A stretch of DNA of 64,000 bases, taken from NCBI GenBank assembly GCA_963818155.1, contig CAWFRC010000001.1, positions 7,730 to 71,729 of the forward strand, in the 5' to 3' direction. This stretch comes from an uncultured Alphaproteobacteria bacterium. GTDB taxonomy: Bacteria; Pseudomonadota; Alphaproteobacteria; Rhizobiales; Xanthobacteraceae. The stretch's first letter is position 1, and every line of letters begins with the position of its first letter. The notes beneath the pieces are model-generated. The model searched no databases, was not told the DNA's origin, and saw only the letters and a list, made by a program, of their open reading frames with translations. Below are positions 50,319-61,637 of this stretch, in pieces. Made by a program: the position numbers and the translations under genes.

Positions 50319-50999
50319 TCAGGACGGCGGCAGCACATACCGGCGCGCCCCGCTATCATCGAGCACAAACAGCGGCGAATAAACGGCGGAAGCATCGACG
50401 TCAGTCACCATCGTCATGGTGCGGTTGTCGAGGATCAACCACCCGTTGCCCGCATAAGCGCCGACGACCATGTGATCCTCGCCGCGGCGCCTGTTGTGAA
50501 CGATCACCAGGCGCACGCGCTCCGGTGCGATTCCGACCTGCCGCAAAGCGAAATACTTGGCGAGCGCATAGTCTTTGCAATCTCCGGCTCCGAGGCTGAG
50601 CACTTCGAGAGGCGACAGCCAAGCGCCTGGCGTCGGTCGCAGCAACAAGTTGATGGTGCGATTGATGTGGCCGAATACCGCCCGGCCACGATAGTTTCTC
50701 GCCTCCTCGACGATCGCCGTGAGTTTGTGCACCGCTCGGCAATCCGACGAGGCGTCTTCGGTGCACGCATTCATCGCTTCTTGATCGCTTGCGATCCGCG
50801 CCAGCTCGTCGCGCCATTTGGCGGCAACGCCGTTGGCCTCGTCGTGGAGGAGGATGCTGTCGCCGCCGAAGGGATCGTGCGGCAAAGATGCGTGCAGAGC
50901 CGCCGTGAACGCGAGAATGAATGCGCCGACGGCGAGGAGGCCGGGCACACAAGCGGCAATTCTAACGATGATCACGCGCACGACCAGACCCACTGTCAT
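50319..50999 (-). CDS. Bacterial transglutaminase-like cysteine proteinase (BTLCP, LapG-like, peptidase C93)
   Basis: Cys-His-Asp context GDCKDYALAKY ... EDHMVV ... WLILDN. N-terminal membrane/signal segment from ATG 50999. Confidence 0.8.
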   Translation of the reverse strand: MTVGLVVRVIIVRIAACVPGLLAVGAFILAFTAALHASLPHDPFGGDSILLHDEANGVAAKWRDELARIASDQEAMNACTEDASSDCRAVHKLTAIVEEARNYRGRAVFGHINRTINLLLRPTPGAWLSPLEVLSLGAGDCKDYALAKYFALRQVGIAPERVRLVIVHNRRRGEDHMVVGAYAGNGWLILDNRTMTMVTDVDASAVYSPLFVLDDSGARRYVLPPS

Positions 51000-51255
51000 C
51001 GAGCCTCCACCCGTGCGAACTCGAGACCGAATTCTGGCGAACGCGGCAGCAGTGCCGGCAGCTCTTTCGGAGTAAGTGTACAAATCTTTCGCGCCCGCAT
51101 GGTTGCCACTCGAAGCGATCTCAACAACCTCGTTTCCACGTCCTTCTTGCGCGAACAAGACCAAGCGACATCGTTATCCGAAATAGTAGATGCCTTCTGC
51201 CGCCTGGTGCCGATCATCGCGAATCGAAAACGCTCGCTCGCAACAGAGATGCACC

Positions 51256-51821: not shown

Positions 51822-53174
51822 TCAGGCAGGATCTTTGCCCGGCTGAGACGGCTGAGGTGAGATCCCGAAGCGTTTCATTTTGGTCCAGAGAGTGACGCGA
51901 GAAATTCCGAGGCTTTCTGCGGCGCGTCCGACCCGGCCTTGATGCCGGGACAATGCTTCGACAATGCGCTGGCGCTCCGCCGCGGCCCGGGCGCTGTTAA
52001 GCGTAGACTTCGACGATGGCACAACTCCTTCGGCAACTTCGCCGGGAAAAACGTCAGCCACCCCGATCCTTCCGCCGTTGGCAAAGCTAAGCGCGCGCAC
52101 GAGGCGATTGCGCAGTTCCCGAACATTGGCGGGCCAATCATGCGCACGCATCGCGGCAAGCGCTTCGGCCTCGACCGGCAACGCCGGCACGCCGAGTTCC
52201 GACGCGACATCGGCGAGCAACACCTCGAGCATCGGCTCGATGTCGGCTTGCCGCTCGCGCAACGGCGGAACGGCGATCTCGATGATGGCGACGCGGTTCA
52301 CCAAGTCTGGAGTGAGCTGATCGCGCAACCTCACGGCGGAAAATTGGGATGAGGCGAGAATCCTCGCCTCGAACGGCAGCTCGGTGCCTATGTCGCCGAT
52401 GCGCATGAACCGCTTGCTATCCATCGCCTGAATCAGCTTGCCCTGAACGGCCGTCGGCAACTCGCTGATCTCGTCGAGAAAGAGCGTGCCGTGACCGGCC
52501 TGCTCCAAGCCTCCGGTATGCAATTCGGCTCCGTCGGTGCCGGCACGGAGCACCTCTCCAAACAACAATCTTTCCCCGTCGTGACCGGTAAGACTGCCGC
52601 ATCGCAAGGCGACGAACGGCTCACTCGCGCGAGCCGAAAGATAATGGGTGAACCGCGCTGCAACTTCCTTGCCACTGCCCGGCTCGCCGACGATGAGCGC
52701 ACTCACCGTGCTGCTGGCAAGGCGCTCCAGGCGGCGTTTCAACTCGACCATGGCCACGGAGGCCATGGTCGGATCGGGCCAGCTCCTCCTGTCCGCGAAC
52801 GAAAGCCGGCCACTCATGACTCGCCGCAGCGCCACGACGAGCGCCGACATGTCGTAAGGCTTCTGCAAATAATCCGCCGCGCCATGTTTGAGGAGGCGAA
52901 CGGCTTGATCGACATCGACTGACGCGGCCGTAAATATAATCGGGGTCGAACCGACATAGGTCAGCGCGTCCCGGTAAATTTGCTCGACATCGCTGTCCGG
53001 TAGACGGACTTCGCTTACGATCGCGTCGAATCGCAACGAGCGAAGCAGTCCCATGGCTTGCGCACGATTTTTTGCAGCCTGCGGCCTGAACCCTTCGTTC
53101 TCAAGGGTGCTAATCAACTTCCCAGATAAATCTTCGTCCGCCTCAATCAACAGAATCTTGGCAGCGTTCGGCAT
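51822..53174 (-). CDS. NtrC-family AAA+ enhancer-binding-type regulator lacking GAFTGA and the receiver Asp
   Basis: Walker A GEPGSGKE, Walker B TLFLDEI, R-finger NVRELRN, Fis-type HTH. The loop reads LFGEVLRAGTDGAELHTG instead of GAFTGA. The receiver reads AIVSEVRLPD. Confidence 0.85.
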   Translation of the reverse strand: MPNAAKILLIEADEDLSGKLISTLENEGFRPQAAKNRAQAMGLLRSLRFDAIVSEVRLPDSDVEQIYRDALTYVGSTPIIFTAASVDVDQAVRLLKHGAADYLQKPYDMSALVVALRRVMSGRLSFADRRSWPDPTMASVAMVELKRRLERLASSTVSALIVGEPGSGKEVAARFTHYLSARASEPFVALRCGSLTGHDGERLLFGEVLRAGTDGAELHTGGLEQAGHGTLFLDEISELPTAVQGKLIQAMDSKRFMRIGDIGTELPFEARILASSQFSAVRLRDQLTPDLVNRVAIIEIAVPPLRERQADIEPMLEVLLADVASELGVPALPVEAEALAAMRAHDWPANVRELRNRLVRALSFANGGRIGVADVFPGEVAEGVVPSSKSTLNSARAAAERQRIVEALSRHQGRVGRAAESLGISRVTLWTKMKRFGISPQPSQPGKDPA

Positions 53175-54086
53175 TCCCCAGCTCCAACGCACCAGCCGCT
53201 CGCTTACCCTTCAACACAGCACGCGCTGAAAAAGCGATAGCGGGTACCTCCCTGGCCGGACCACCAGCATGTTGCGCAACCTTGACGCCTGTCAAGCAGA
53301 TGCAACGACACGAAGCTTGCCCTTGTTTTCAGCAATTCAGTTGTGATCTGCGTCACCCAAGCGATCCGCAGGGCCGGAAACGCGATGCTTCATGGCCTTC
53401 GGCCCAACAGACAATGCGCGACAAAATGCAACTGATATTTGTATTTTTTTAGCTCGAGAACATGCCTATCCGGGGCGTTAGCGTTGATTTTTAGTTTGGG
53501 CATGGCCACCGTCCCACATGCCGTTTACTGCCACGCGCCATTTCCTATTGGGCAATTCGATATCGCGTGGCGACGGGCGCGTCTCAGATATTTCACTTGC
53601 TTTGCCGGTGTTTTGGAAGTGGTGCCCGGCCGTTGTGCGATCACGGCGGCGTGAACGAAGTTAACCAACGTTCGCCCGAGGGCGGCCCCGTCAAATTCCA
53701 AAAGCGGCCATTTTCAGCGGCGATTCCGCCGTCGGTTAAATGATCTGAACAGCGCGTTGTCACTACTTTACCTAAGAGTAGATTGACGCTTTCAATCAAA
53801 GATAGTTGTTTGCTGCTGTGTCGGAGGGTCAACTCCGGCGGGCAGAGAGGGAGGCGGCCGAACCGGGACATTGATGTGCTTTTTTGGTTACGATCGGCGT
53901 CGGGACTGATCGCCTTGCGGTTCTTTGCGGGTCGTTTGTTTCGAACCGGTCTCCAGAACAGTCAAAGTCTAAATCATTCTTATTCGACGTGAATGGCTGC
54001 CGCAGATCGTTCGTGGATCGCAGACGCAGAAGATCAGCGATTCTACGAAGTGATGGGTGTGTCTTCACGTCTAGAGGAGACACGTC

Positions 54087-54755
54087 ATGGGTATCAATTT
54101 CTGGGATCCGAACAATCAGAATCAGGATCAAGGCCAGGGCCAAGGCGAAGGCCAGGGCCAGCTGAGCCTCCAGGGCCAAGGTCAGGCCCAGGCTCAGATT
54201 GCCGCCGATCTGAACGGCAATCTGAACGGCAACGGCAACGGCAATCTGAACGGCAACGGCAACTTCAACGCCGACGGCAACCTCAACGGCAACCTCAACG
54301 ACAACGTCAATCACAACACCGATACGGTGTGCGTCGACGTCAGTGTCGATGCGAGCGTGACGCCGCTGATCGGCGATCTGAGCGACGCCACGGCCCTCTA
54401 CATGCCGCAGGACATTGCTCAGAGCTTCACTGCCGGCGGCACCGACACCGCCATCGCTCTCGACCAGATCAACAGCCTTGTTGCCAACAACACGGCGCAA
54501 GATCTGCACAACTCGGATCATTCCAGCATGTGGGGCAGCGGCGCGACGGAATCCGGCGCTGTCGACGTCGGCGACATCAGCCAGGGCGCCTTGGCCACGG
54601 GCCAACTGCAGGGTGCGACTTCGGCGGCCGCGACGGTTGACGCGTTCACCCAGAGCATCGTTCTCGGAGCCAACATCCAGAACAACTCGTTCACCCTCAC
54701 CATCACGGGCCATGATTCGGCCGTGACGGCCGGTGACGCCGCCCATCACGGGTAA
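54087..54755 (+). CDS. Gln/Gly- and Asn/Gly-rich low-complexity protein, candidate T1SS substrate
   Basis: AGGAGA RBS 7 nt upstream. No signal peptide. aa 9-37 are (Q-G/A)n and aa 42-77 are (N-G/L)n. The C-terminal half shares the motif LGANIQNNS with the next gene. Confidence 0.7.
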   Translation: MGINFWDPNNQNQDQGQGQGEGQGQLSLQGQGQAQAQIAADLNGNLNGNGNGNLNGNGNFNADGNLNGNLNDNVNHNTDTVCVDVSVDASVTPLIGDLSDATALYMPQDIAQSFTAGGTDTAIALDQINSLVANNTAQDLHNSDHSSMWGSGATESGAVDVGDISQGALATGQLQGATSAAATVDAFTQSIVLGANIQNNSFTLTITGHDSAVTAGDAAHHG

Positions 54756-54768
54756 ATTCTAAAGCGTG

Positions 54769-54798
54769 AGGCCCGTGCGCTACGGCGTGCGGGCCTTT
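54769..54798 (+). terminator. Hairpin after the 222-aa gene (12-bp stem incl. 2 G-U, loop uacg, short U tract)
   Basis: aggcccgtgcgc-tacg-gcgtgcgggcct followed by tt. Hand-folded. The weak U tract suggests partial termination at most. Confidence 0.4.
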
Positions 54799-54904
54799 AC
54801 ATCCGCAACTCGACGGGGGACGGGGTCGCGGATGGCTCTGCTCTCAATTCGGCTACCGGTAATACAACCGCGTTTGTCGTAACAGCCAACGATCGAGTGG
54901 TGAC

Positions 54905-56887
54905 ATGGCATCCTCCGACGTGCTCAACGAACTGATTGCGCACTTTGCCGGCTACCTGCGGCTTCCTCCCGGTGACAACTACACCGTGAAGATTCTCTAT
55001 GAGGGAAGCGCGGTCCCTGACACCGGCCAAGCCGACGACAACGCGAAATCCCATGCGGTCCATCACCCGGACCTCGATCAGTTTCACGGCGCGCACCTGA
55101 ACGTACCCCCAATACCGGCGTTCAAGCCCGACCATTTATTCTATTTCACACCGCATAAGTTCCACAACACGGACTTTCATTCTCCGCACCCAACCCTGAT
55201 CCTGCCCCACGCGCTGCCGCCTTTGCTCAACGGTCCGGCCGGCGCCGGCGGTGGCGGCGGCGGTGGCGGCAATTTCCAGATTACAGCCAGCTACCAAAGC
55301 GGCGGCGACGAGACGATACTCGACATCCGCCAGGTCAACGTGCTCTCGAACAACAATTTGCTGATCAACAATCAGCAGGTGACCGCGGCGACCGAGGCTT
55401 ACGAGCACAACCTAAAGCACGCCGAAAAGGTCCTCGGCGACATGGTCCAGCAGGCGAACGACGCCATTCCCAACAGCCTCAATCTCTCCGCTGACAATAC
55501 ATCCTCAGGTCTGCAGCAATTCGTCGAAGCGCGCGATGCGCACCCGATCAGCACGCTGGCGCAAGACGCACCGTTCTCCACCCACCCAGGGCAATACGTG
55601 AACGGAACGCCGGTCACCGACGGCTCCAATCCGCATCAGACAACCGACAACCTGCTCACCACGGTTGCCAATGCCGAGCAGACAGGGTTGACGGGCCCGC
55701 CGCAAGCACCGGCGGGCGACTACCAGCATGACCACATCGCAACAGTGTCGGTCGGCTCCAACTATCAGGCGAACGACGCCGCCATCGTCAATGGGGAAGG
55801 CCTCACCGCGATGTTGGCGGTGCAAGGGAACTACTATCAGACCGAAGCGATCATCCAAACGAACGTGGTGGGCGGCAGCGACCATATTTCCGGCGGCGGC
55901 CCGGGCGCGGCTTCGATCGCAGCGAACACGGTGCAGAATATCGCCGATATGCAGAACCAGGTGCCGACACTCACGTCCGGCGGATCCGGGACCACTACAT
56001 CGGGCCTGAATTGGTCGGTGACGGTCCTCAACGGCGACCTAGCCGATGTTCACTCCCTGGTACAAACGAACTACCTGCAAAATAACAACGTGGTCTATCA
56101 AACCACCGAGATGGGCGAGAGTCTGACGGTCGCCGGCAGCAACATTCAGACGAACTCCGCCGAGTATCAGAATTTAACGTCGAACTACCAATTGATCATC
56201 GTCGAAGGCAACTACAACCAGGACGACCTGATCTATCAGACCAACGTCATGTTGGATAACAACAACGTCAGGTTCCACGGTGGCCACGGCGGCGGCACTG
56301 CGAGCGCGACAGGCGGCGGCGACAACGTCGTCAACGACGCCACGATCGTCGATACCGCTAACCACAATTATCAGGCGTTTACCCCCGCCGCCCAGTCCGT
56401 CGTACAAGCCTTGGAAAGCCAGTCGGGGACCGTCGACCCCGCCTCGGTGTTGAGCGCGTTTCCGAACCTGTTCGGAAACATCAATGTGCTTGTGGTCACG
56501 GGCAACTATTACGACATAAACTACATCTCGCAGACCAACATCATGTCGAACTCGAACGTCGTGCAAATGTGGGGCGGCCATGGGGCGACGGACACGGTCA
56601 ATACCGGAAGCAACATAGCGGTCAACGCGGCCACCATCATCGACGGCGGCAGCGCGTTGTCGCCCTATCTGCAGGGCAGCTACTACAACGACATGATCCT
56701 GCTGCAGACCAATATCATCGGCAACAATGCGAGTGCCGCCGCACACAATCCGAACCAGTTCGTGCCCGAACTTGTGGCCTTCACGGGCGCCTTGGACTCC
56801 GCGCATCAAGGTTCCGAGGCCACGATCGCGGCCGCGGCAAGCGTGCAACAGCATCATCACGACGGTGTAGCCGGCGTGATGCACTAA
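54905..56887 (+). CDS. 660-aa repeat protein with GNYY-x4-I-x-QTN-type repeats, candidate T1SS substrate (non-RTX)
   Basis: 5-6 copies: VQGNYYQTEAIIQTNVV, LVQTNYLQNNNVV, VEGNYNQDDLIYQTNVMLDNNNV, VTGNYYDINYISQTNIMSNSNVV, LQGSYYNDMILLQTNII. Gly8 tract at aa 115-122. No signal peptide. Confidence 0.75.
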   Translation: MASSDVLNELIAHFAGYLRLPPGDNYTVKILYEGSAVPDTGQADDNAKSHAVHHPDLDQFHGAHLNVPPIPAFKPDHLFYFTPHKFHNTDFHSPHPTLILPHALPPLLNGPAGAGGGGGGGGNFQITASYQSGGDETILDIRQVNVLSNNNLLINNQQVTAATEAYEHNLKHAEKVLGDMVQQANDAIPNSLNLSADNTSSGLQQFVEARDAHPISTLAQDAPFSTHPGQYVNGTPVTDGSNPHQTTDNLLTTVANAEQTGLTGPPQAPAGDYQHDHIATVSVGSNYQANDAAIVNGEGLTAMLAVQGNYYQTEAIIQTNVVGGSDHISGGGPGAASIAANTVQNIADMQNQVPTLTSGGSGTTTSGLNWSVTVLNGDLADVHSLVQTNYLQNNNVVYQTTEMGESLTVAGSNIQTNSAEYQNLTSNYQLIIVEGNYNQDDLIYQTNVMLDNNNVRFHGGHGGGTASATGGGDNVVNDATIVDTANHNYQAFTPAAQSVVQALESQSGTVDPASVLSAFPNLFGNINVLVVTGNYYDINYISQTNIMSNSNVVQMWGGHGATDTVNTGSNIAVNAATIIDGGSALSPYLQGSYYNDMILLQTNIIGNNASAAAHNPNQFVPELVAFTGALDSAHQGSEATIAAAASVQQHHHDGVAGVMH

Positions 56888-56938: not shown

Positions 56939-59020
56939 ATGGATAATAGTGGAGGCTCGCCGCCGTCGAATGGTCCTACGGCAGGCAAAGCGATCAACGG
57001 CGCCAACGGGACCCAGCGCAACGGAGCCAGCGGCACGAGCACAGCCAATGGCACGAACGGAGGTGGCGCGGCAAACGGAGCCGGCGTCGTAAACAGCAGC
57101 AGCGTCGCAAATACCACCAAGGTTGCCGCGAACGCCGGCAGTGTCGTCGCGAACGGTGGCAAGCCTGCCAACGGCGGCAAGCCCGCGAACGGAGCCAAGC
57201 CCGCAAACGGCAGCAATGGCGGACAAGGAGGCAACGGCGCCAAAGCCGGCGCCAAGGCCGCGCTGCAACAGCGAGCCGCCGACCGCGAATTTCAAAACGT
57301 ACTCGGCAAGACGATCGAGATCGCCCGGCGCAAGATCGTCGTTGTTGGCATCTTCTCGCTCGCAGCCAATCTGCTGCTGCTGGCGATGCCGATCTATCTC
57401 TTCCAGCTGTCGGACCGCGTCTATACGAGCCGCAGCACCGATACCCTGGTCATGCTGTCCGTGGTGGTGGTCGGCGCGATCGCCGCCTACGTCTTTCTCG
57501 ACATGATGCGCCGGCTCATCCTCACGCGAATCGCGGTCGAGACGGAATCGAGGCTCGGCGCCCCGGTCCTCAGCGCCGCCGCCAAAGGCGCGCAAAGCGG
57601 CATAAGCCGCGATTTTCAGACGCTGGGCGACCTGCAGCAACTGCGTGCATTCATCACTGGGCCGGTGATCCTGATGATGCTGGATGCCCCGGTTGCACCG
57701 TTCTATTTGCTCGCTGTTTACATGATTCATCCGCAGCTCGGCATGATCGTCACCGTGACCGGCGTTGCCCTTATGGTCATCGCGCTTCTTAACCAGAAGC
57801 TCACCGCCGTCCCGTTTGCGCAGGCCAACACCTATGCGACGCGCGCGAATCTTGCCTCCGATGCCATGGCGCGCAATGCGCAGGTGATGAACGCCATGGG
57901 GATGATTCCCGAAGGCGTGCAAATTTGGGGGCGGGAAACCGCGGAGTCGCTTAAGGCACATGTGACCGCCCAGGATCGCAACACTTATCTTGCGGGCATT
58001 TCGAGGATGGTGCGGCTCTGCACCCAGGTCGCAATCCTCGGCTGGGGAGCTTGGCTCGCGCTGCACGACGAACTGACTGGCGGCATGGTAATCGCCGCTT
58101 CGATCGTGGCGAGCCGGGCGCTGGCCCCGCTCGAGGGCACGATCGAAGGCTGGCGCGGCTTCATTCACGCGCGCTCGGCTTGGGCGCGCATCAAAGCGCT
58201 GCTGCAGAATTCGCCGTTGAATGTCGAGCGGCTGCGACTGCCCAATCCGAGCGGCCGGCTTACGGTCGAGCGGATTTTGTATGTGCCGCCGCCGAGTAAG
58301 AAAGTTGTCCTCAATGGCGTCTCGTTCGAGCTGGAGCCCGGGGAATCCCTGGCGATCGTCGGGACTTCGGGCGCCGGCAAGTCGACGCTGGCGCGTATGC
58401 TGGTCGGATCGATCACGCCCACTGCGGGCAACGTCCGGCTCGACTGGATGGATTTGCGCAACTGGGATCCGCGCCAGTTCGGCGAAAGCGTCGGCTACCT
58501 GCCCCAGGACGTGCAGCTGTTCCCGGCGAGCATCAAGGCCAATATTGCGCGCATGCGCGAGGACGCCACTGACACGGCGATTTTCGAGGCCGCCGAGCTC
58601 GCCGACGTCCACGAGATGATTTCTCAGTTCCCGGCCGGTTATGAGACGCAGGTTCTGATCGACGGCAGCCCGCTGTCCGGCGGCCAGAAGCAGCGCATCG
58701 GTCTCGCCCGCGCCTTCTTCGGCAGTCCGCGGCTGGTCGTTCTCGACGAGCCGAACTCCAACCTCGACGCCGCCGGCGAGATGGCGCTTGCCCGCGCGCT
58801 CAGTCGAGCCAAAGACAAGAAAATTACCATCGTTGCGATCACGCAGCGGCCGTCATTGCTGCAAAGCGTCGACCGCATCATGATCATCAAGGACGGCACC
58901 ACGCAGACCATCGGCAAGCGCGATGAGATCATCCCGCTGTTGAACGGCCGCCCGCCGAATGCCAACGGTTCGCCTCCGCCGGCAAATACGACCAATGGAA
59001 AACCTCGTCTCGAAGCTTAA
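56939..59020 (+). CDS. Type I secretion system ABC transporter (PrtD family) with ~118-aa Asn/Gly/Ala-rich N-terminal extension
   Basis: TMD plus NBD (GTSGAGKST, LSGGQKQR, VVLDEPNS). No C39 domain. No in-frame ATG/GTG/TTG between codon 1 and the first TM helix. Confidence 0.9.
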   Translation: MDNSGGSPPSNGPTAGKAINGANGTQRNGASGTSTANGTNGGGAANGAGVVNSSSVANTTKVAANAGSVVANGGKPANGGKPANGAKPANGSNGGQGGNGAKAGAKAALQQRAADREFQNVLGKTIEIARRKIVVVGIFSLAANLLLLAMPIYLFQLSDRVYTSRSTDTLVMLSVVVVGAIAAYVFLDMMRRLILTRIAVETESRLGAPVLSAAAKGAQSGISRDFQTLGDLQQLRAFITGPVILMMLDAPVAPFYLLAVYMIHPQLGMIVTVTGVALMVIALLNQKLTAVPFAQANTYATRANLASDAMARNAQVMNAMGMIPEGVQIWGRETAESLKAHVTAQDRNTYLAGISRMVRLCTQVAILGWGAWLALHDELTGGMVIAASIVASRALAPLEGTIEGWRGFIHARSAWARIKALLQNSPLNVERLRLPNPSGRLTVERILYVPPPSKKVVLNGVSFELEPGESLAIVGTSGAGKSTLARMLVGSITPTAGNVRLDWMDLRNWDPRQFGESVGYLPQDVQLFPASIKANIARMREDATDTAIFEAAELADVHEMISQFPAGYETQVLIDGSPLSGGQKQRIGLARAFFGSPRLVVLDEPNSNLDAAGEMALARALSRAKDKKITIVAITQRPSLLQSVDRIMIIKDGTTQTIGKRDEIIPLLNGRPPNANGSPPPANTTNGKPRLEA

Positions 59021-59050: not shown

Positions 59051-60389
59051 ATGGCAGGCGCAGTGATAGCGACTCGCGAGTGGTATGCGGATGTTCCGCG
59101 CCGCACGCACGTGCCAACCTCGGCGGGCATCATTTCGATGGTCTTGTTCGTGGTGGGATTTGGCTATTGGTCGAATACGGCTCTCATCGCTGGCGCGGTG
59201 ATCACCTCGGGCGCCTTCGTGACGACGGGCCAAAACAAGATCATTCAGCATCTGGAAGGCGGCGTCATCCGCGACATCCTCGTGCGCGAAGGCGACATCG
59301 TCGAGCCGGGCCAGACCCTGATCCAGCTTGACCCGACCGCTCCGCGATCGGAGCTTGACCGGCTGACCCTGCGTCACATGCGCTCTGAGGCAATGGAGGC
59401 GCGTCTTGTCGCCGAGATCCGCAACGAGCCGCAGGTGACATTTCCCGCCGACCTGTCGGCGCGGCGCAACGACACGGACATCAAATCCCTCGTCGGCGCC
59501 CAACAGCTCACGTTCGACGCCTGGCGCAAGAATTCTTGAAGCGGATATCGCCGCGTTGCAGGACGGCATAAGTGCTATCAAAGAGCGGATGAACGCGTCG
59601 CAAACGCAGAAGAAAGCGGTCGGGCACCAGATCGAGTTGATCGAAGAAGAACTCGCCAACAAGAGCGCGCTGTTGCCATCGGGTCTGGTGCGCAAGCCGG
59701 AAATCCTCGCCCTGCAGCGTGCCCAGGCTGCTCTGCAAGGCGAAATCGGCAAACTGGACGGCGAAATGGGCGAAGCCAAAGAGCAGATTGCCAAGACCGA
59801 GCAGCAGATCGTCGGTTTGCGCACGTCAGCGATCAAAGAGGCTGTCGAGCAGCTCCATCAAACCCGCGCGGAGATTGCCGACTTTCGCGAGCGCATTCGC
59901 ACCCAGCAAGGGATACTCGATCGCGTGAGCATCGCCGCGCCGGTGCGCGGTATTGTCGTCAAGTTGAGGTATCACACCACCGGGGGTGTCATCGAGCCCG
60001 GCAAGAACATCATGGAAATCCTGCCGCTGCGGGATAATTTGGTAATCGAAGTGCGCGTGCGTCCGCAGGATATCGATCACGTCAAAATCGGGCAGGAAGC
60101 GTCGATCCGTCTGACGGCACTCAACCGCCGCACCACGCCGACGCTGACCGGCAAAGTGCTCTATGTCTCTGCCGATGCGCTGCCGGATGATCTTCAGACC
60201 GTCCAGGGCCGCGAGGTTTACGTCGTCCGGATCGCGCTCGACGAAGAGCAGCCCCCGCCGATGCAAAATTTCAAGCCCAAACCCGGCATGCCGGCCGAGG
60301 TGTATATCAAGACCGCCGAGCGCACGTTTTTCGAATATCTGATGCAGCCGATCCGCGATAGCATGGCGCGTGCCTTCCGCGAATCGTGA
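59051..60389 (+). pseudogene. HlyD family T1SS periplasmic adaptor, interrupted by one frameshift at ~59531-59540
   Basis: ORF 59051..59539 holds the TM anchor and first lipoyl half. The frame of ORF 59556..60389 continues LEADIAALQDG... with the coiled coil, beta-barrel and C-terminus. Confidence 0.8.
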
Positions 60390-60926
60390 TTAAAACTGGT
60401 GCTGGTAACCCTCGACGCTCAACGGTTCCATCAGTTGCGCATCGAAGTAGCGCGACCACAGCGCGGATCTGATCTCGCGCTCGGCGGGGGGAGAAGCCGA
60501 GTGTTCCTCATCGAGCCGCTGGCTTTGCGGCACCGCCGCATCGAGCGCCTGAATGAACGACTCAGCGTTGCGGCATCCAGATATGAACCGGCTGTCGTTG
60601 GAAGCGCTGAGAAAGCACATCTCCTCGCCAACGAGATCGCCGGGCATCCCGGTAATGTCCGCCCAGGCACCGGCTTGCACCGCCGCCAGATCGTCGGTGT
60701 CGAGCGCCCCGATGTGGTACGTCGCGATGGACGTGATCAGCATGCCGAGAAAGCCGATCACATAAGGATCGTGCCATGCCGCATCGGGGATATTGCCTAA
60801 GCGCAGCCGAGTACCGTCAAGAAGCGGAATAATTTGAGCGACCGCAGCGCGACGCCCCCGATAAGTCTTCCACAAGCCAAACACTTTACGCTCCGTCGCC
60901 GAATGACGCCGACCCACCCGGCCCAA
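60390..60926 (-). CDS. Hypothetical protein, convergent with and abutting the T1SS adaptor gene
   Basis: Coding-like codon usage on reading. Only a TTG start at the ORF edge. Its stop codon directly abuts the hlyD stop (tgatta). Confidence 0.5.
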   Translation of the reverse strand: MGRVGRRHSATERKVFGLWKTYRGRRAAVAQIIPLLDGTRLRLGNIPDAAWHDPYVIGFLGMLITSIATYHIGALDTDDLAAVQAGAWADITGMPGDLVGEEMCFLSASNDSRFISGCRNAESFIQALDAAVPQSQRLDEEHSASPPAEREIRSALWSRYFDAQLMEPLSVEGYQHQF

Positions 60927-61028
60927 CCAGACGGGCCGCTTCTATTTAACGCTGAATTTGCTTATATCTATTAAAGTATTCTCGTTCATTATGCCACTGC
61001 GTTCGCTGGTGCGCTGATTTCGAGACGC

Positions 61029-61637
61029 TTGATTGCGATCGCCGTTCGAATGAGGGTGCCTGTGTCCCAACTGCCGCCAAAGCCCGACTTTGCCGCCATC
61101 GAAGCCGCTGCGCACGGTTCGGCGAACCGCCGCACGTTTATCATGGCACTGATCGGCAACCTGGTTTACAGCTGGGCGAACAACGAAAGCATGTTCATCT
61201 ACGTGTTGATGATTCTGATGAACACCGATGAGCCTTCGGCCGCGGTGGTGTTCACCACTCTCAACACGACCCGAGCGCGCCTTGATCTGGTCGAGCGGCT
61301 GGCAAGGATCAAAATCGGGGACAAGTCCATCCAAAAAGCGCTCGAACGCATCATCGGGCAGTTCAACGAATTGACCAAGCTGCGCAACGAATTCAATCAC
61401 TGTATGTACACGCTCAATGAACGCGGCGAGATCACGCACACCCATTCGATCCGCATGCAGGACGTCAAGGGAAAGCTGCAACTCGGCGTTATTCGCAAAA
61501 TGGACGATGCCCGGATCAACGACATACTCGCGGCGGTCCGCGATATGACCAAGCTCAATCGTGAAATCTGGGACTTCCTCCCTCGGCTGCAAAGCAGCCT
61601 CCAGGCGTCGCCAAACGATCCCTCTCAAAAGTCGTAA
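61029..61637 (+). CDS. Hypothetical protein with HEPN-like R-N-x3-H motif
   Basis: Coding-like codon usage. KLRNEFNH (61382-61399) fits Rx4H with Asn after Arg. Start uncertain (61029/61050). Confidence 0.6.
   Translation: MIAIAVRMRVPVSQLPPKPDFAAIEAAAHGSANRRTFIMALIGNLVYSWANNESMFIYVLMILMNTDEPSAAVVFTTLNTTRARLDLVERLARIKIGDKSIQKALERIIGQFNELTKLRNEFNHCMYTLNERGEITHTHSIRMQDVKGKLQLGVIRKMDDARINDILAAVRDMTKLNREIWDFLPRLQSSLQASPNDPSQKS

Follow-up and report, generated by a model that had tools for sequence, protein, structure and literature searches.

The 64,000-nucleotide stretch of Xanthobacteraceae DNA analysed here (the window) encodes, at 54087-54755, a 222-residue protein whose gene heads a type I secretion system (T1SS) cassette and whose N-terminal part is striped with glutamine, asparagine and valine. 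The cassette is most likely a dedicated and previously undescribed T1SS of soil Alphaproteobacteria, with this small and probably highly expressed protein as its cargo. We further favour, with moderate confidence, the reading that the cargo is exported by the T1SS and self-associates as a structural subunit of the cell surface or matrix, as suggested by its T1SS context, its composition, its gene dosage, the hairpin that follows the gene, concatenated giant homologues and a leader RNA held in common with exopolysaccharide genes. Pfam, NCBIfam, Rfam, the Protein Data Bank (PDB) and the searchable literature contain no description of the cargo family, its 660-residue partner, a HEPN-like gene or the leader RNA; the transporter is ordinary and is the only cassette component to carry an annotation.

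The cargo, its family and its secretion cassette

The initial annotation placed the cargo first in a T1SS operon, and this holds: behind it lie a 660-residue open reading frame (ORF), a PrtD-type ATP-binding cassette (ABC) exporter (TIGR01842, 683 bits) and an HlyD-type membrane-fusion gene (Table 1), the latter two forming a dedicated exporter pair recognized by TIGR01842 and TIGR01843. In keeping with a T1SS substrate, the cargo has no signal peptide, its N-terminus (MGINFWDPNNQ) being devoid of any hydrophobic core, as had been read before, and its last 60 residues are free of R, K, E and P, all of which are reported to be depleted in T1SS substrate C-termini (PMC8861453). Asn and Gln make up 12.6 % and 9.5 % of the protein, compared with 2.9 % and 3.8 % for the window's 40 ORFs of 250 residues or more, Asp reaches 9 %, and Lys and Arg are absent. 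The chain ends in HHG, with His221 invariant in alignment A1; relatives end in HHS or HSHPV, and some distant (class B) relatives in L, I or V.

The order of cargo, 660-residue homologue, ABC exporter and HlyD-type gene is kept in most species-representative genomes that have a relative and enough flanking DNA, among them metagenome-assembled genomes (MAGs) of Xanthobacteraceae, Pseudolabrys and Reyranella and the cultured Reyranella soli NBRC 108950 (locus L009). It persists over cargo identities from 30 % to 100 % and includes a lineage of 47 % GC content; the exception is locus L006, where a cargo gene stands without the cassette. Locus L141 reads, in order, LuxR-type regulator, giant cargo homologue, 772-residue homologue of the 660-residue protein, ABC exporter, HlyD-type gene and two small genes, and a LuxR-type regulator is often found near the cassette. 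The system is common in soil metagenomes: 35 recorded contigs carry an identical 660-residue partner, and 22 of these contigs were read; 6 of 10 contigs carrying it also encode the identical 222-residue cargo. The exporter of the window additionally has an N-terminal extension of about 120 residues (56939-57313) of low complexity, built of NG(T/A/S) and GGKPAN repeats with a Tandem Repeats Finder period of 18 at 57148-57216, the sequence of which is not conserved in relatives.

Homologues with a conserved C-terminal domain, whose absence would have counted against the initial annotation, do exist: a search with the C-terminal 145 residues alone returned 81 proteins, a profile of diverse C-terminal domains extended the family to at least 415 members (90 % clustering), and a filter-free search with a hidden Markov model (HMM) gave 147 clusters at 50 % identity. 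All are annotated as hypothetical, the only names being those of MAGs of Pseudolabrys, Xanthobacteraceae, Pseudorhodoplanes and 'Acidobacteria'; among the named relatives, those from Pseudolabrys and Xanthobacteraceae come nearest and those from Reyranella are more distant. Invariant residues in alignments A1, A3 and A5 define two motifs, MPQ..Q...(I)ALDQ[IV]N.L and DAFTQSIV.GAN.Q.N.F, followed by a His-containing end, and the cargo of the window displays both motifs, the His end, Gln, Asn and Val stripes in one register, and a position upstream of the 660-residue homologue and the T1SS genes. The earlier 222-residue translation, including its readings of residues 9-37 and 42-77, matches the ORF at 54087-54755 exactly. 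Sequence searches of Pfam, NCBIfam, PADLOC and the PDB gave no match to the cargo, literature searches turned up no description of its family, and AlphaFold, supplied with 38 sequences, returned no confident fold (predicted local distance difference test score, pLDDT, 46.8). The failure of a cluster look-up to retrieve the exact cargo sequence was an artefact and was not used, six contigs encoding that very sequence.

Two further features of the family bear on what the cargo does. Giant acidic homologues of 1100-1600 residues (P0173, P0183, P0184 and P0190) consist of 8-12 tandem C-terminal domains and have no Gln/Asn stripe; P0173 (L141:1863-6599), with 1578 residues and 11 such domains, is itself part of the same T1SS cassette in a 47 %-GC genome. 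In Reyranella-type loci (L005:7587-10867; L007:1-1806) two or three near-identical 323-residue cargo genes stand in tandem, each with its own upstream leader-like sequence and its own hairpin behind the gene. Together with the T1SS synteny and the hairpins found after other cargo genes, these tandem copies and joined domains fit the abundant secreted subunit that had been proposed from the window itself.

The cargo can also be read as an antagonist. Being small, non-RTX and encoded beside its own ABC and membrane-fusion pair, present as tandem paralogues in some genomes and differing between strains in its C-terminal tail (HHS versus GGHSHPV), it might be a secreted bacteriocin-like protein, with the two small conserved genes that adjoin the operon, one of them encoding a hydrophobic segment, providing immunity. 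We consider this distinctly unlikely: Pfam, NCBIfam and PADLOC detect no domain typical of toxins, pore formation or receptor binding, the small neighbours keep a high identity across lineages (48-85 %) whereas immunity genes usually diversify, giants with 8-12 joined domains resemble structural proteins, and the leader is common to exopolysaccharide genes. The 178-residue neighbour has no family match.

In nearly every locus with sufficient flanking sequence, L006 again being the exception, the 660-residue gene comes immediately after the cargo gene; its product has 72 homologues, all hypothetical, of which those accompanying the divergent cargo type are only about 30 % identical. AlphaFold, at a predicted template modelling score of 0.69 for the model, gives a beta-rich core with long strands at residues 123-606 (pLDDT 80-90), with the His/Pro-rich residues 1-122 and the C-terminus disordered, and six G.YY....I.QTN[VI] units can be read in the sequence. 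The protein begins with an invariant motif, E..IxHFAGYL+LPP, conserved also in the 772-residue homologue of L141; the His/Pro-rich disordered stretch and a run of eight Gly (55240-55270) come after it, the whole covering 54905-55270. Sequence searches of Pfam, NCBIfam, PADLOC and the PDB were without a match, and Foldseek comparison of the model with the PDB and BFVD yielded nothing meaningful, all template modelling (TM) scores being below 0.1; the top non-significant matches are the FapC and CsgA fibrils (E > 0.03, TM < 0.1). The motif that the initial annotation saw in both the cargo's C-terminal half and the 660-residue protein is visible by eye, as is a second resemblance (GGTDTAIALDQINSLVANN versus GGDETILDIRQVNVLSNNN), and neither proved significant: hhalign aligns only this second pair, at a probability of 3.9 %, and an HMM of the six QTN units scores at best 8.4 bits on real cargos versus 10.6 bits on shuffled ones. 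Both proteins do have the His tails ascribed to them, a trait conserved across the cargo family but not in all 660-residue homologues.

Register and constraint of the N-terminal stripe

The first 85 residues of the cargo bear Gln, Asn and then Val at alternate positions without interruption, and every second residue of aa 9-93 reads NQQQQQEQQSQQQQQADNNNNNNNNNNDNNNNNNNDVVVVAVP, i.e. the three stripes keep a single two-residue register across their linkers. This continuous register, which the initial annotation does not mention, is the most conspicuous trait of the protein. The registers coincide in 48 of the 49 full-length, mutually related family members that have all three stripes, even though stripe onset in these ranges between residues 4 and 147 and the linkers vary. 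Class B relatives replace the G/L of the other face with D/K/E/S (DNKVDNKLENSV...) and keep the periodicity, and Val83, Val85 and Pro93 are invariant in alignment A1. Five moderately diverged orthologues give nonsynonymous divergence (dN) of 0-0.03 at synonymous divergence (dS) of 0.21-0.27 for the Gln/Asn tract (aa 9-77), compared with dN of 0.10-0.16 at dS of 0.30-0.71 for the C-terminal domain, and the nominally low-complexity half of the cargo is thus its more constrained half. By register and by divergence alike, the stripe is functional and not a product of drift, in line with the initial suggestion that its Gln/Asn richness is selected.

At the nucleotide level, the hexanucleotide repeats behind the stripe are less regular than the 'near-perfect' units first described. 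Tandem Repeats Finder delimits imperfect arrays at 54123-54197 (periods 6, 11, 12 and 18) and 54208-54317 (periods 12, 18 and 24), with matches of 72-85 %, and the Asn codons AAC and AAT as well as the Gln codons CAA and CAG are mixed. The genome, described as high in GC, is moderately so at about 60 %. Length change by slippage, which had been anticipated, does occur between near-identical strains and is rare: one six-nucleotide QG unit is deleted in L014 and L017, two of the 10 contigs with the identical 660-residue protein, and relative P0001, with a C-terminal domain 100 % identical, lacks 14 residues.

What the stripe contributes can be approached from its composition. With 32 Gln or Asn in 69 residues, aa 9-77 lie above the threshold of the prion census, which asks for at least 30 Gln/Asn per 80 residues together with low charge and low hydrophobicity. 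The sequence evidence neither supports nor excludes amyloid or prion behaviour of the cargo. The acidic Asn/Gly/Asp arrays and the His tail could instead bind metal, or order water or crystal faces, making the cargo a secreted ion-, mineral- or ice-binding protein. Such a role would suit the extreme acidity (9 % Asp, no Lys or Arg), the conserved terminal His motif with its invariant His221 and the flat, repetitive Asn arrays, and T1SS cargos commonly fold on binding Ca2+ outside the cell. It is nonetheless very improbable in our view: neither the cargo nor the 660-residue protein gives a HemolysinCabind match, no RTX nonapeptide (GGxGxDxUx) is seen in their sequences, and the cargo has no structural match to ice-binding or Ca-binding folds. 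In class B stripes, moreover, G/L are exchanged for K/D/E with the periodicity preserved, which argues for a constraint on backbone geometry rather than for a specific ligand surface.

The strict placement of Asn at alternate positions also recalls the cores of polytheonamide-type beta-helix peptides, in which every second residue is epimerized, and by that analogy the cargo might be the precursor of a heavily modified peptide. We find this barely credible, given that the conserved cassette contains no radical-SAM, methyltransferase or protease gene, that its PrtD-type ABC transporter has no peptidase domain, and that the stripe is N-terminal and followed by a conserved 130-residue domain that also occurs in the giants.

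A further analogy, with LapA, would keep the N-terminal stripe threaded in the T1SS/TolC conduit as a surface-retained tether, to be released by a LapG-like protease. An extended chain of 85 residues would span about 28 nm at about 3.3 Å per residue, which would be of the order of the conduit length; 3 kb upstream of the cargo there is a gene for a BTLCP/LapG-like transglutaminase-fold cysteine protease (50319-51164, minus strand); and the IAAD linker between the stripes holds an Ala-Ala dipeptide. Yet only about eight residues precede the stripe, leaving no folded N-terminal retention module, the dipeptide is not conserved in the family, and no LapD-like gene was seen. The protease gene, although recognizable by Peptidase_C93 (E = 5.6e-10), scores 60.7 bits with NF045674, far below the LapG cut-off of 320 bits, and adjoins the cassette in none of the related loci examined. 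We therefore regard a tether as improbable and continue to favour the self-associating subunit.

Leader RNA, hairpins and regulation

Conservation of the 75 nucleotides that precede the cargo ATG far exceeds that of the coding sequence itself. They comprise two predicted hairpins (Table 1), which make the leader (54015-54088) a candidate new cis-regulatory RNA; it matches no Rfam family. Hairpin 1 has a single copy in the window. Its loop does not vary even between loci with cargo proteins of only 30-50 % identity (about 30 % at the lowest), and its outer stem pairs covary between AU, UA, CG and GC, with a score of 0.29 versus 0.16, as high a value in none of 500 shuffles, and far lower scores in slid controls. 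In hairpin 2 the Shine-Dalgarno (SD) sequence is predicted to be paired with a mean probability of 0.86 in 36 leaders versus 0.57 in shuffled controls, the anti-SD partner differing by lineage (GUGUCUUC, GCUCCU or GUCUCC). The strong ribosome-binding site (RBS) credited to the cargo is hence present as AGGAG, 7 nucleotides before the ATG, but predicted to be occluded. Scanning the Reyranella and L141 loci with a covariance model of hairpin 1 yielded no convincing copy, which restricts the leader to part of the family.

An exact-pattern metagenome scan with a 21-mer returned 120 matches (loci L021-L140), about one third of which are a single unrelated gut-metagenome coding sequence and were set aside. 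The motif appears before window-type cargo genes, before divergent-type cargo genes and, in a third setting, as an ORF-less variant ahead of LuxR-type response regulators and of a sugar transferase with a Bac_transf match (E = 3.5e-20). These class C copies (L075:261-845, L080:415-1817, L044:934-1810, L022, L063, L093 and L094) have no ORF directly behind them, carry AGAG in place of the SD sequence and continue into about 250 nucleotides of conserved non-coding sequence, downstream of which lie the sugar transferase, a sigma-54 regulator or response regulators of the LuxR type. Their placement suggests a shared regulon or a small RNA.

A possible protein partner is encoded at the far end of the cassette. 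The HEPN-like protein has weak matches to PADLOC Csx1 (E = 1.3e-4) and Pfam HEPN_Cthe2314 (E = 0.06), and may be a candidate RNA-binding partner of the leader hairpin. Its true coding strand is the plus strand (61143-61637), with identities of 72-85 % versus 45-55 % for the antisense frame, and the minus-strand ORF first listed at 60942-61628 corresponds to that antisense frame.

Behind the cargo gene, the 66-nucleotide stretch holding the 3' stem (54750-54815) folds at -28.5 kcal/mol (z = -3.2). The dedicated hairpin terminator of the initial annotation is confirmed in its 11-bp stem and not as a terminator call, only three T residues following the stem, for which reason a terminator scan did not report it. 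Hairpins lie 0-21 nucleotides from the cargo stop codon in the window, in L001, L003, L004, L007, L009 and L141 and after each of the three L005 copies, and they beat shuffled controls in nine of 10 intergenic regions tested, L004 being the exception, a placement expected of a subunit produced in surplus over its machinery. No -24/-12 sigma-54 promoter was found ahead of the cargo gene in the window or in six related loci, so that control by the neighbouring sigma-54 activator is unsupported. The region between that regulator gene and the leader (53193-54014) is non-coding, unusually long at about 820 nucleotides and lower in GC (54 %), and no sigma-54 or Rfam match was found in it.

Table 1. 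Coordinates of the cargo gene, its leader and 3' hairpin, and the neighbouring genes in the window
Feature	Position	Strand	Description
Cargo gene	54087-54755	+	222 residues, acidic, no Lys, no Arg, no signal peptide
Gln stripe (aa 9-37)	54111-54197	+	Q/E at each second residue, G/A/L in between
Asn stripe (aa 42-77)	54210-54317	+	N/D at each second residue, register as in the Gln stripe; seven Asn-Gly dipeptides
Val stripe (aa 81-91, VCVDVSVDASV)	54327-54359	+	Shared register; ends at invariant Pro93
Family-defining C-terminal domain	54360-54752	+	Motifs MPQ..Q...IALDQ[IV]NSL and DAFTQSIVLGANIQNNSF, plus His tail; invariant columns in A1, A3 and A5
Leader hairpin 1	54015-54043	+	Stem GGATCGC/GCGATTC, 15-nt loop AGACGCAGAAGATCA (RNA: AGACGCAGAAGAUCA)
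Leader hairpin 2	54050-54088	+	Anti-SD GTGTCTTC pairs with SD GGAGACAC (SD at 54076-54079); ends at the start codon
3' GC-rich stem-loop	54770-54795	+	11 bp, 15 nt after the stop codon, then TTTACA
660-residue partner	54905-56887	+	His/Pro-rich disordered N-terminus, Gly run, six 'YY..I.QTN' beta units, C-terminal HHHD..GVMH
T1SS ABC exporter, PrtD type	56939-59020	+	TIGR01842, 683 bits (cut-off 510); 68-83 % identical in related loci
T1SS membrane-fusion gene (HlyD/AprE type)	59051-60389	+	Both halves match TIGR01843; split by a 1-nt insertion at 59533
Conserved small protein, 178-residue ORF	60390-60926	-	One hydrophobic segment; homologue in L001, L003, L004, many class B loci and L141
HEPN-like protein, about 165 residues	61143-61637	+	RNEFNH (Rx4H); 48-85 % identical in all cassette-bearing lineages
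Sigma-54-dependent response regulator	51822-53192	-	Divergent; Pfam and NCBIfam matches; syntenic in L001, L003 and L011-L020; possible regulator

A working model and its relation to known systems

In light of these results, we propose that leader hairpin 2, predicted to bury the RBS, would place cargo translation under the control of a trans-acting factor, while the cargo transcript would be made or stabilized in excess over those of the machinery genes. Judging by context and composition, the unfolded, acidic, Lys- and Arg-free chain would then be exported C-terminus first by way of the PrtD-type ABC transporter, the HlyD-type adaptor and, beyond them, an outer-membrane factor whose gene lies elsewhere. 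Outside the cell, the 85-residue N-terminal stripe may adopt an extended beta conformation and zip side by side through Gln/Asn ladders, with the C-terminal domain, the module strung together 8-12 times in the giants, supplying the repeating body and the beta-rich 660-residue protein possibly co-exported as a minor partner, perhaps as base, cap or nucleator. Such assembly would yield a fibre, layer or matrix component that is associated with the surface and regulated together with exopolysaccharide synthesis. In its fullest form the model would have the HEPN-like protein act on the 15-nucleotide loop to unmask the RBS of cargo, exopolysaccharide and regulator mRNAs, the T1SS export the cargo, and the Gln-Asn-Val stripe form a single beta-strand of about 28 nm that zips into a new polar-zipper filament or sheet; we consider this combination of steps unlikely as a whole. 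If it were true, the protein fold, the RNA motif and the pairing of regulator with RNA would all be previously undescribed. The seven Asn-Gly sites of such a filament might allow it to harden over time by deamidation.

It is important to note that several observations weigh against a secreted structural subunit. Secretion, expression and assembly of the cargo are all inferred from sequence, and the beta-zipper is a reading of the periodicity and not a model, AlphaFold having found no fold for the cargo. The membrane-fusion gene of the window has an extra T at 59533 relative to four independent near-identical contigs, in which it is intact at 445 residues; this frameshift stems from an assembly error or else from a mutation that inactivates the gene in the strain, and if it is real the T1SS is inactive there. 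No outer-membrane factor gene was found in the cassette, and the cargo ends in HHG (HHS in relatives) and lacks the [FLI][VAI] ending typical of RTX T1SS cargo (PMC8861453). The family members behind the register count are related to one another, and slippage in units of 6 or 12 nucleotides yields even-length indels only, so that the shared register may partly reflect mutation bias. Finally, the similarity between cargo and 660-residue protein is not significant, and a nucleator role for the latter is therefore a guess.

Were the proposal to hold, it would show that in the Hyphomicrobiales, whose members matter for soil aggregation, self-assembling proteins of the surface or matrix can be delivered by a T1SS. 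It would also provide a long natural Gln/Asn polar zipper kept in exact register by selection, and hence a clean model for polar-zipper and amyloid physics, as well as a candidate cis-regulatory RNA whose invariant loop joins protein and polysaccharide matrix genes. We take the cassette for a T1SS with a probable non-RTX structural cargo, with a modest chance that it represents a new type of fibre and regulatory system. The existence of a cultured carrier, R. soli NBRC 108950, makes these ideas directly testable.

Among known systems, the closest in kind are alphaproteobacterial. A precedent is ExpD1/ExpD2, a PrtD/PrtE-type transporter of Sinorhizobium that secretes ExpE1, a small protein required for making galactoglucan (PMC1403797). 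This system of S. meliloti and PrsDE of Rhizobium leguminosarum resemble the one described here in pairing a PrtD-type T1SS with a small non-toxin cargo and a tie to exopolysaccharide, the tie in our case being the leader motif common to exopolysaccharide genes. Neither, however, has a counterpart of the 660-residue partner, the HEPN-like gene or the leader RNA, and whereas ExpE1 and NodO are Ca-binding, NodO-like proteins, the cargo of the window has no RTX or other Ca-binding repeat and belongs to no common sequence family with them. A similar likeness links it to HasA, with its transporter HasDE, and to other small non-RTX T1SS cargos: a cargo of about 200 residues without signal peptide or RTX repeats, encoded beside a PrtD-type ABC exporter and a membrane-fusion protein. 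Unlike HasA, the cargo has no similarity to the haemophore family, and half of it is of low complexity and predicted to be unfolded as a monomer. The giant homologues of 1100-1600 residues, with their 8-12 tandem acidic domains in a T1SS cassette, together with the BTLCP gene of the window, recall LapA-type adhesins, from which the present system differs in that no retention module, conserved LapG site or LapD was seen and the BTLCP gene is non-syntenic.

As a fibre system, the pair of cargo and 660-residue protein is reminiscent of curli (CsgA/CsgB) and Fap (FapC/FapB), in which a small, abundant, Gln/Asn/Gly-rich extracellular subunit is accompanied by a related minor protein and biofilm regulators. 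The pair nonetheless has no Curlin or Fap family match, its genes adjoin a T1SS instead of CsgG or FapF, cargo and partner are not demonstrably homologous as the curli and Fap subunit pairs are, and a two-residue stripe takes the place of the 19-23-residue strand-turn-strand repeats. The density of 32 Gln/Asn in 69 residues and the proposed Gln/Asn ladders as glue liken the stripe to Gln/Asn-rich prion domains and to the polar zippers of Perutz, although the cargo is bacterial and, as proposed, extracellular, unlike eukaryotic prions. Yeast prion domains are driven by composition and tolerate scrambling; the cargo, in contrast, alternates strictly in a fixed register and has a near-invariant sequence under purifying selection.

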